From sequence record MN508614.1: a stretch of DNA of 64,000 bases. One strand, given 5' to 3'. Below are positions 186 to 35,292 of this stretch, in pieces; the stretch's first letter is position 1, and each line of letters opens with the position of its first letter. Made by a program: the position numbers and the translations under genes. Source of the DNA: Escherichia phage ES12. The notes below the pieces were generated by a model. That model did no database searches. It was not told the origin of the DNA and was given only the letters and a program-made list of their open reading frames with translations.

Positions 186-519
186 ATAAACCTCAATTAG
201 AAAATAAATTTATCCAAGATTGTTCTTTAATTAAAAATGGCTCAGAATCATATGCCATTAAACTTTGGGTGATTAGTCCTTTAAAAGGTCCATCAATAAA
301 TTCCATGGTAAAATATGGAATTTTATTCATTAGCCGTGCATTAGGAGCAGTGCACAAAACTCTGCATCCTTTGAATACGCCTTTTTGTAATTTGTATTGC
401 TTGGGATAAAATTCGCTCAAAATGTTATTATTTGCCAAAATTTCAAAATGATTCACCAATTTATTTTTAATAGTTTTTTGGCGAAAAATAAAGATATTCG
501 AAAAGCTGTGTGTCTGTCA

Positions 520-1110
520 TCATTGCATTCCAATCACAAAAAATTGAGGACGAACTGTTTCACCTGTTTCAGCATTATAGCTTCGACAACAGTGTTGTAC
601 CGTTTTAATATGGATATTGTAAATCTTATCCATATCAGGAGCTTTAATAGGTTCGTCAATTATGTACAAGATACGAGAAAGCGATAACCCACGGAATTTA
701 TGACCTTCATTACCGATAAAACTACGGACAGAGTCAGTAAATAAACGAAAACGTATATCATCATTAGAATAACGCGAAAATTCCTTTTTAATGTTATTTG
801 CAGAAATTTTAGCGTAAGCTGAAGTATTAGAAAGAACAATAACTGTTCCGCCATCATACAGCCAATTAGCAGCAAAGTTAGTCACAGCAATTGATTTACC
901 GGATTGACGTCCACCATCTATACGAAGTGTGCAGTACTGTTTGAGCACATCTTCCATTGGTGGAAGATAATCATTCTTACAAATTTCTTCTACTCTAGCA
1001 TCAGAATGGTGTGTAAAAGCATTCATCAGGGATAGATAAGGACCAGTTAAAAATGTTCTCATTTTATTCTCTCTAAGTTTGGGCCATTCCGTGGCGCATG
1101 AATTGTCCAT
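520..1110 (-). CDS. Standalone P-loop NTPase with terminase-large-subunit-like ATPase core (Walker A GGRQSGKS, Walker B ILYIIDEP)
   Basis: 196-aa ORF; motifs RQSGKS and FRGLSLSRILYIIDEP parallel gp17 motifs RQLGKT and [16 protein letters not shown] seen in this same window; alternative start at Met17 (1062). Confidence 0.6.
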   Translation of the reverse strand: MDNSCATEWPKLRENKMRTFLTGPYLSLMNAFTHHSDARVEEICKNDYLPPMEDVLKQYCTLRIDGGRQSGKSIAVTNFAANWLYDGGTVIVLSNTSAYAKISANNIKKEFSRYSNDDIRFRLFTDSVRSFIGNEGHKFRGLSLSRILYIIDEPIKAPDMDKIYNIHIKTVQHCCRSYNAETGETVRPQFFVIGMQ

Positions 1111-1203
1111 TTCTGTATTTACCCATTACCGCACTTGGGCTCGACCTTAACACAGGTTGGCGGGAATCCCTCACAGAATCATGAGGTCCAGGTTGTTCCC
1201 ATA

Positions 1204-32154: not shown

Positions 32155-35292
<3,138 letters not shown>

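Follow-up and report, generated by a model that had tools for sequence, protein, structure and literature searches.

The window analysed here is a stretch of 64,000 nt from the genome of Escherichia phage ES12 (MN508614.1), and near its beginning an open reading frame (ORF) of 196 aa lies on the minus strand at positions 520..1110. A first-pass annotation, made from the sequence letters, had described its product as a stand-alone P-loop protein of ~180-196 aa that resembles the ATPase core of the large terminase subunit (TerL), lacks a nuclease domain and stands in an unusual context among denV and internal-protein-like genes. The ORF is a genuine gene, the Tequatrovirus accessory gene vs.8, and is annotated under this name in both RB51 and T4. 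We hold with high confidence the identification as vs.8 together with the homology of the product to the TerL ATPase. Over its first 2.2 kb the window matches Escherichia phage ES26 with 100% and both RB51 and RB68 with 99% identity. The protein matched phrog_1488 with E 1.9e-79 (ORF residues 19-196 against profile positions 2-177 of 177), as did all 30 aligned relatives, and shares 86.7% aa identity with T4 vs.8 (UniProt P13318). The first-pass annotation had allowed for the case of a known T4 family without terminase relationship; the protein belongs to a T4 family, phrog_1488, yet one that is related to terminases by profile.

The second in-frame methionine of the ORF (Met17, 16 codons downstream) is the start in annotated relatives such as RB51, and from this residue on the N-terminus follows the conserved pattern MxxLTxxYLxLMxAF in 30/30 diverse relatives. 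Since the relatives and the annotations begin there, the vs.8 coding sequence (CDS) was assigned to 520..1062 on the minus strand, with the stop codon at 520-522 and a product of 180 aa; the ORF itself, the phrog_1488 match and the ratio of non-synonymous to synonymous substitutions (dN/dS) given below are in agreement with this. The 48 additional ORF bases, 1063-1110, fall inside a conserved non-coding element upstream of the gene. The CDS of T4 vs.8, annotated at 651-660 nt (e.g. in MT984581.1), is over-extended into the same RNA-like element.

Conservation was followed in a narrow family alignment (A1) and in an alignment of 30 relatives sharing 19-67% identity with the window protein (A2), the latter also being used as a search profile. 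The Walker A motif or P-loop, G50-G-R52-Q-S-G-K56-S57 (892..915, minus strand), is invariant in A1 and conserved to at least 90% in A2, and aligns with S161-RQLGKT of gp17, the large terminase encoded in the same window. The 'RG' motif F123-R124-G125 (688..696, minus strand), which precedes the Walker B aspartate by 11 residues, is aligned with V244-R245-G246 of gp17 in both hmmsearch and hhalign. The Walker B strand I131-L-Y-I-I-D136 with the subsequent catalytic-type E137 (652..672, minus strand) aligns with MIYID255-E256, and the chain ends with F174-F-V-I-G-M-Q180 (523..543, minus strand), where a strand is predicted at 173-177 and where G178 and Q180 are invariant in A1. Residues G51, R52, Q53, G55, K56, R113, R124 and G125 are conserved to at least 90% in A2; E137 and P138 are invariant in A1, and 27 of the 30 A2 members have an acidic pair behind the hydrophobic strand. 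When the whole phage genome was translated in six frames, the pattern [AG]x4GK[ST] was present in just 10 of the 492 ORFs that reach 70 aa. The motifs that had been pointed out earlier, GGRQSGKS and a Walker B-like sequence, are thus found at residues 50-57 and 131-137, and the parallel to gp17, including the RG before hhhhDE, returned as FRG at residues 123-125 in the profile alignment. An arginine at position 3 or 4 of Walker A, the 'arginine toggle', is near-universal in TerL (PMC6379665); vs.8 has R52 at this place, and the TerL-type combination of hhhhD and a catalytic glutamate is present as ILYIID136-E137.

The paralogue whose ATPase core vs.8 resembles, gp17, is a 610-aa ORF at 33460..35292 on the plus strand and carries the motif SRQLGKTT. 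When the A2 profile was run against all 492 ORFs of the 166.7-kb genome, gp17 was the best non-self match with 28.0 bits (E 5e-8), 18 bits above any other P-loop ORF. The runners-up were Walker A ORFs of 447 and 478 aa with 10.0 and 9.7 bits, which, judged from their motifs only, we take to be probably Dda and gp41, and UvsW of the same window gave no score with the profile. Among 177,635 distinct PDB sequences the top three matches were gp17 chains (E 1.7e-5, 2.1e-5 and 6.8e-5), the next match following at E 0.068; the likeness to the TerL ATPase core claimed at the outset was recovered in both searches. The alignment pairs residues 26-142 of vs.8 with 138-262 of gp17, extending from the helix ahead of Walker A over the RG motif to Walker B. 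TerL family phrog_2 was matched by 17/30 relatives (best E 3.9e-8), and no PHROGs with a named function other than TerL families were matched by any of the 30. Pfam Terminase_6N was matched by 15/30 relatives, the best with E 1.4e-4 and every match under the curated cut-off. The window protein as a single query gave nothing above threshold in Pfam, NCBIfam, PADLOC or PDB (phmmer), with Pfam values of 0.016 for AAA_14 and 0.09 for Terminase_6N, and A1 found no match in PDB; the single-query searches were uninformative, and the link to gp17 was exposed solely by the broader 30-sequence profile. By sequence, large terminases are the closest relatives of vs.8 that have a functional annotation. N-subdomain I of gp17 is the nucleotide-binding Rossmann core, and we consider it probable that vs.8 is a 180-aa single-domain P-loop protein of the additional strand, catalytic glutamate (ASCE) class that is homologous to this subdomain of T4-type gp17.

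An AlphaFold2 model based on 16 relatives (pLDDT 80.4, pTM 0.81) consists of one alpha/beta domain with five strands, among them 131-136 (Walker B) and 173-177 (C-terminal), which fits a stand-alone protein of 180 aa; no further domain follows strand 173-177, in line with the noted absence of a nuclease. When compared with the PDB by Foldseek, the model retrieved helicases and ATP synthase with E above 3e-4, an uninformative result in which the helicase domains of Sen1 and SLFN11 were the best matches. The modelled fold by itself does not tell TerL from the RecA1 domain of a superfamily 2 (SF2) helicase, and it is the sequence profiles that point to terminase. The terminase likeness might then be generic, with vs.8 as a RecA1-like NTPase of minimal size that descends from a helicase or another P-loop protein and, for example, works on early RNA or DNA as a nucleic-acid-dependent ATPase. 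Both the Foldseek result and the Pfam models AAA_14 and AAA_30, which match as many relatives as Terminase_6N, speak for such an origin. We regard it as highly improbable in view of the 28 bits scored by gp17, with no other P-loop ORF of the genome exceeding 10 bits and UvsW giving no score, of gp17 as the only significant PDB family with TerL as the only matching PHROGs, and of a PSI-BLAST search started from vs.8 that arrives at T4-like terminases (PMC13601566). Moreover, vs.8 lacks the helicase motifs Q, Ia, TPGR, DEAD/H and SAT as well as a second RecA domain; only motifs I and II are found in its one domain, and Pfam DEAD was matched by 1/30 relatives with E 0.077. A nucleotide or nucleoside kinase was not indicated either, neither by a profile match nor by a kinase-type P-loop fold devoid of the extra strand and the catalytic glutamate. 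The comparison with terminases, helicases and kinases that had been proposed as a check therefore favours TerL at the sequence level.

Several observations weigh against this kinship or against TerL-like catalysis. The window protein reached 12.8-13.1 bits with Terminase_6N, below the curated cut-off of 22, and all Pfam AAA models likewise stayed under their cut-offs. Alignment of A1 to the single gp17 sequence by hhalign gave a probability of 14%. When 1.84 billion representatives were searched exhaustively with a profile, only small vs.8-like proteins and no terminases came up at E <=0.001. Among distant relatives, P0055, P0062 and P0065 have the Walker A Lys replaced by His (SGHS/TGHT) and carry no Glu after Walker B (hhhDxx), and by these substitutions the three may represent a catalytically inactive sub-branch. 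Finally, the lid, which in TerL provides the partner of the Walker A arginine, is absent, so that TerL-style catalysis may not extend to vs.8. The exhaustive search yielded 49 relatives with lengths of 66-259 aa, and in none of them did the domain form part of a longer protein; an origin of vs.8 by fusion or from a 'split terminase' left no trace in this search.

For seven informative pairs, dN/dS of vs.8 was 0.13-0.43 (Nei-Gojobori), i.e. vs.8 is under purifying selection and a functional gene. The gene was found by tblastn in about 1009 phage records, all matches listed belonging to T4-like Straboviridae of enterobacteria and relatives. Two separate 2-bp deletions turn vs.8 into a pseudogene in the T2 record LC348380.1, where only a 110-aa C-terminal ORF is annotated. 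BFVD also contains fragments, one of 57 aa from T2 and one of 133 aa from phage Lutter. The frameshifts in T2, the fragmentary ORFs in a few records and the dispensability of the gene would suit a decaying, functionless remnant of a duplicated terminase gene. This reading is largely refuted by the purifying selection, and we give it next to no credence: the gene is full length in about 1007 of the 1009 records, its catalytic residues are kept down to ~20-30% identity, the protein is detected early in T4 infection, and the translational coupling with the downstream gene vs.7 is conserved.

In T4, vs.8 gives rise to an early RNA and an early protein (PMC9697503 supplement). It is non-essential, insertions being tolerated at 59/59 sites in HIDEN-SEQ (bioRxiv 10.1101/2025.11.20.689424), and CRISPRi-ART classified it as 'Not Fit' (PMC11879866). 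In that screen the guides against vs.8 lie at T4 64,887-64,937, which corresponds to the mis-annotated start, ~110 nt upstream of the conserved Met. Since these guides target the leader at the over-long annotated start, 'Not Fit' may have been called without a true knock-down of vs.8.

From the conserved residues, vs.8 would bind Mg-ATP in a TerL-like pocket through K56/S57, D136 and R52 and would probably hydrolyse it with the help of E137. Binding of ATP is rather likely in our view, and ATPase activity is deduced from the same motifs. R124 might act in trans as a putative arginine finger if vs.8 oligomerises. With its 180 aa, vs.8 has no nuclease domain; lid and coupling C-motif do not follow Walker B, and the chain ends with GMQ at residue 180, not with TTT, directly behind the strand next after Walker B. 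By its ASCE topology, from which the equivalence of the C-motif is deduced, vs.8 would end where TerL or a helicase has motif III or the coupling motif. Because lid, nuclease and portal-binding parts are missing, vs.8 would be no packaging motor and would neither translocate nor cut DNA. Nor is it an essential late gene beside those for the small terminase and the portal: it lies 32 kb from gp17 in the early block, is expressed early in T4 and is non-essential.

An action on the motor could also be indirect, if vs.8 mixed into gp17 oligomers or bound gp16 or the portal, either as a regulator or as a poison subunit. The two proteins are encoded by one genome, vs.8 is a paralogue of the oligomerising ATPase core of gp17, and its RG arginine could act in trans. 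Against this, vs.8 is early in T4 and packaging late, the gene lies in an early accessory-gene block far away (32 kb) from genes 16 and 17, its knock-down or insertion carries no fitness cost, it is a pseudogene in T2, and the subdomains by which TerL contacts the portal and the neighbouring subunits are lacking. A modulator of the packaging motor is accordingly very unlikely.

The kinship of vs.8 with terminases has appeared in the literature. In a study published in Nature Communications on 3 August 2026 (PMC13601566), an in silico screen of T4 proteins against the bacterial immune sensor EcAvs2 singled out vs.8, which the authors termed 'an uncharacterized ATPase-like protein' and for which they described sequence and structural homology to the T4 terminase ATPase along with Walker A/B motifs. 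Co-expression of T4 vs.8 with EcAvs2 was toxic, and AlphaFold 3 modelled vs.8 in the pocket of Avs2 just where the terminase ATPase sits, with a bridging ATP, so that EcAvs2 is reported to recognise a TerL-like surface of ATP-bound vs.8; besides terminase, vs.8 is the sole T4 protein reported as an EcAvs2 trigger. The authors put vs.8 forward as a possible anti-defence protein that Avs2 has come to detect (PMC13601566). The relationship proposed here is hence correct but not new. It remains that a non-obvious relationship was recovered by reading the raw sequence alone: T4-like phages carry a terminase ATPase core that has been duplicated and reduced to a minimum. Since STAND immunity of bacteria senses the conserved fold of terminases, the kinship of vs.8 is of biological relevance.

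It can be envisaged that vs.8 serves as an early decoy for those TerL sensors that need more than the ATPase core (Avs1, Avs3, Upx) and thereby blunts detection of late TerL, Avs2 having adapted to fire on vs.8 itself. The TerL-like fold and ATP site, the expression in T4 before gp17, the accessory, non-essential nature of the gene and its confinement to one phage lineage are consistent with a decoy, as is the suggestion in PMC13601566 that non-terminase Avs2 activators are anti-defence proteins which Avs2 evolved to sense. Conversely, the sole reported experiment shows vs.8 activating, not inhibiting, EcAvs2, and vs.8 matches neither PADLOC nor anti-defence families. A decoy would furthermore need no intact catalytic Glu, RG and Walker A under purifying selection, yet Avs2 does contact the ATP site. 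We consider this decoy unlikely.

More broadly, the most likely biological context of vs.8 would be phage-host conflict, where its benefit for the phage would lie in counter-defence and not in packaging; we put this forward tentatively, as a possibility. The counter-defence role is a conjecture, and the only published immune test runs counter to it, with vs.8 triggering, not blocking, Avs2. Any role of vs.8 would also be conditional, because the gene is non-essential and is a pseudogene in one T2 record.

Directly downstream of vs.8 lies vs.7, at 193..523 on the minus strand according to the RB51 annotation, its ATG overlapping the vs.8 stop codon. A vs.7 homologue directly follows vs.8 in 35/40 independent T4-like loci, and 34 of the 40 have the vs.7 ATG either overlapping with the vs.8 stop codon (ATGA) or abutting it. 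This arrangement of stop and start suggests co-translation and a shared function, and vs.8 and vs.7 probably form a conserved, translationally coupled gene pair. The window copy of vs.7 is frameshifted near 470-480 and reads MMTDTQLFEYLYFSPKNY up to a stop, the RB51 gene being intact with 108 aa. The frameshift adjoins a homopolymer run, and the matching GenBank record of ES26 (MN508618.1) is UNVERIFIED and unannotated; for these reasons it is possibly a sequencing error. In the mechanism that we favour, vs.8 would be a nucleotide-dependent binding or switch protein that probably works with the coupled product of vs.7.

On the minus strand the genes are ordered e.2, nudE, e (lysozyme), denV, Ip4, vs.8, vs.7 and vs.6 (GrcA), so the setting among denV and internal-protein-like genes is as the first-pass annotation had it. 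The position of vs.8 upstream of vs.7 and vs.6 and downstream of the denV/Ip block recurs in the annotations of RB51 and T4, and together with the 35/40 loci this answers the question of synteny in related phages. In T4 and in this phage alike, vs.8 is upstream of vs.7, vs.6 and regB. In T4 denV directly adjoins vs.8, whereas here Ip4 lies between the two. The label 'endoribonuclease' (RegB), which vs.8 bears in several GenBank records, was discarded, as an identical RegB note has been pasted on unrelated neighbouring ORFs; vs.8, vs.7, vs.3 and vs.1 are all named 'endoribonuclease RegB' in several records (KP869105.1 among them), a propagated error. In one Klebsiella phage record (OR359401.1) the vs.8 homologue is called 'terminase large subunit'.

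The spacer between Ip4 and vs.8 measures 141 nt, is GC-rich and far exceeds the vs.8 protein in conservation. It holds a conserved structured-RNA-like element at 1081..1200 on the minus strand, which forms the leader of vs.8. Its invariant core (1126-1156, minus strand), CCTGT...AAGGTCGAGCCCAAGTGCGGTAA, is read in the window as ...ACCTGTAATAAGGTCGAGCCCAAGTGCGGTAA... and has no second copy elsewhere in this phage's genome. In 40 of 41 T4-like loci from IMG/VR, whose vs.8 proteins are 32-88% identical to that of the window, the 45-nt core occurs once, on the vs.8 strand and usually 60-130 nt upstream of the vs.8 ATG. In three T4-like loci (L028, L030 and L043) an Ip-like ORF beginning MKTYKE..., which resembles the N-terminus of the window Ip4 (MKTYQEF), is inserted between the element, about 500 nt upstream of vs.8, and the gene. 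A second, degenerate copy was seen in other T4-like loci (L019, L031, L046).

An exact-pattern scan of IMG/VR retrieved 56 stretches with the element, including contigs of ~38, 46, 70, 75, 92 and 117-140 kb, the largest of them rV5-like, that have no vs.8 nearby. On such contigs, from unrelated phages, it lies in or adjoins tRNA gene clusters on the same strand, and in three cases a hairpin resembling an intrinsic terminator follows; these tRNA-cluster copies would look like an independent small RNA gene. The element was not found in E. coli genomes, and a host-derived sequence was therefore rejected; in 596 Gb of bacterial genomes the pattern occurred 7 times versus ~9 expected by chance. No family of Rfam 15 matched it. 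A tRNA was ruled out by ARAGORN, and a promoter-stem-loop (PeSL) cassette, i.e. promoter-terminator, was rejected as well, since the PeSLs of T4-like phages are multi-copy with a different consensus and the element is single-copy.

Five helices are proposed, all on the minus strand: P1 (1196-1200/1162-1166), P2 (1182-1186/1169-1173), P3 (1158-1160/1123-1125), P4 (1154-1157/1144-1147) and a 3' hairpin (1092-1095/1083-1086). Covarying forms are for example GGGAA/UUCCC, GGGAG/CUCCC and AAAGGC/GCCUUU in P1, CCCU/AGGG, CUGG/CCAG and CCAU/GUGG in P3, and ACCU/AGGU and GCCU/AGGC in P4. In 27 'standard-type' sequences, which are phylogenetically related and in which the helices were defined by hand and eye before counting, paired cells amounted to 87.3% versus 80.9% in shuffles and double-sided changes to 32 versus 14.2, neither value being reached in any of 500 shuffles; the covariation score was 0.197 versus 0.074, and at most 0.138 when the partners were slid. 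When P3 partners were swapped among 30 flank types, native partners paired better than permuted ones (p about 5e-5). The folding energy of the window copy is ordinary (z = +0.76), by which an unusually stable fold was rejected, and the structures that RNAalifold derived from raw MAFFT alignments were scant or inconsistent. In T4 the element is dispensable, insertions across the over-long 'vs.8' annotation all being tolerated (bioRxiv 10.1101/2025.11.20.689424). We regard it as a candidate for a new family of phage small RNAs or leaders.

Taken together, vs.8 and vs.7 might constitute an ATP-dependent counter-defence module in which an early, stripped-down terminase ATPase engages or misleads the terminase sensors of the host, with the leader as a new RNA family, a combination that we offer as a speculative and improbable whole. 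If it holds true, the leader family, which is single-copy, phage-only and covarying and recurs in tRNA clusters of unrelated virulent phages, may act with the vs.8-vs.7 module or regulate it. The over-long T4 CDS, the coupling to vs.7 and the adjoining RNA-like element bear in any case on the design of clean knock-outs and on the reading of existing screens.

Apart from T4 vs.8 itself, the closest known systems include the ATPase domain of gp17 (Pfam Terminase_6N; PDB 2o0h, 3cpe, 3ezk), an enzyme of 610 aa with which ~150 residues are aligned. What vs.8 keeps from TerL is the Walker A motif with the TerL-specific arginine, the RG before the Walker B strand, and hhhhD with the catalytic-type glutamate; what it lacks is the N-terminal extension of gp17, the lid (subdomain II), the linker, the RNase-H-like nuclease, the portal-binding parts and the TTT coupling motif. 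While gp17 is a late essential gene, vs.8 is an early accessory gene and does not stand beside genes 16 and 20. Compared with RecA1 of SF2 helicases (DDX1, 8tbx; T4 UvsW, 2oca), vs.8 has neither the helicase motifs nor a RecA2 domain nor a signal at the sequence level. Stand-alone P-loop proteins of 140-170 aa with similar models were found in BFVD, from Pseudomonas jumbo phages (B3FJV4 of 201phi2-1, F8SJJ9 of PhiPA3, Q2Z0Y6 of EL) and Aeromonas T4-like phages (I6ZI47 of Aes012, E1A261 of phiAS5), with Foldseek E of 1e-5 to 3e-3 and 9-20% identity. From these model-based matches, large phages may possess a broader class of ASCE proteins of minimal size.

The packaging ATPase of phi29, gp16, is a nuclease-less ASCE protein that works with a structured packaging RNA (pRNA). 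By analogy, vs.8 might be viewed as a likewise nuclease-less ATPase of packaging type beside a structured RNA-like element; however, vs.8 is dispensable and has half the size of phi29 gp16, and in other phages the RNA beside it is also found apart from vs.8. The general searches turned up no match to phi29 gp16, at which no search was aimed. Set beside vs.8 by the published description are the other non-terminase activators of Avs2, Ksap1 and Ksap2, small, lineage-restricted phage proteins with a central beta sheet and flanking helices, found in Dhillonvirus and Stephanstirmvirinae rather than in T4-like phages (PMC13601566). Like vs.8, both are predicted to occupy the Avs2 pocket in the manner of the TerL ATPase and are toxic with Avs2, whereas sequence homology to TerL and Walker motifs were reported for vs.8 alone (PMC13601566).

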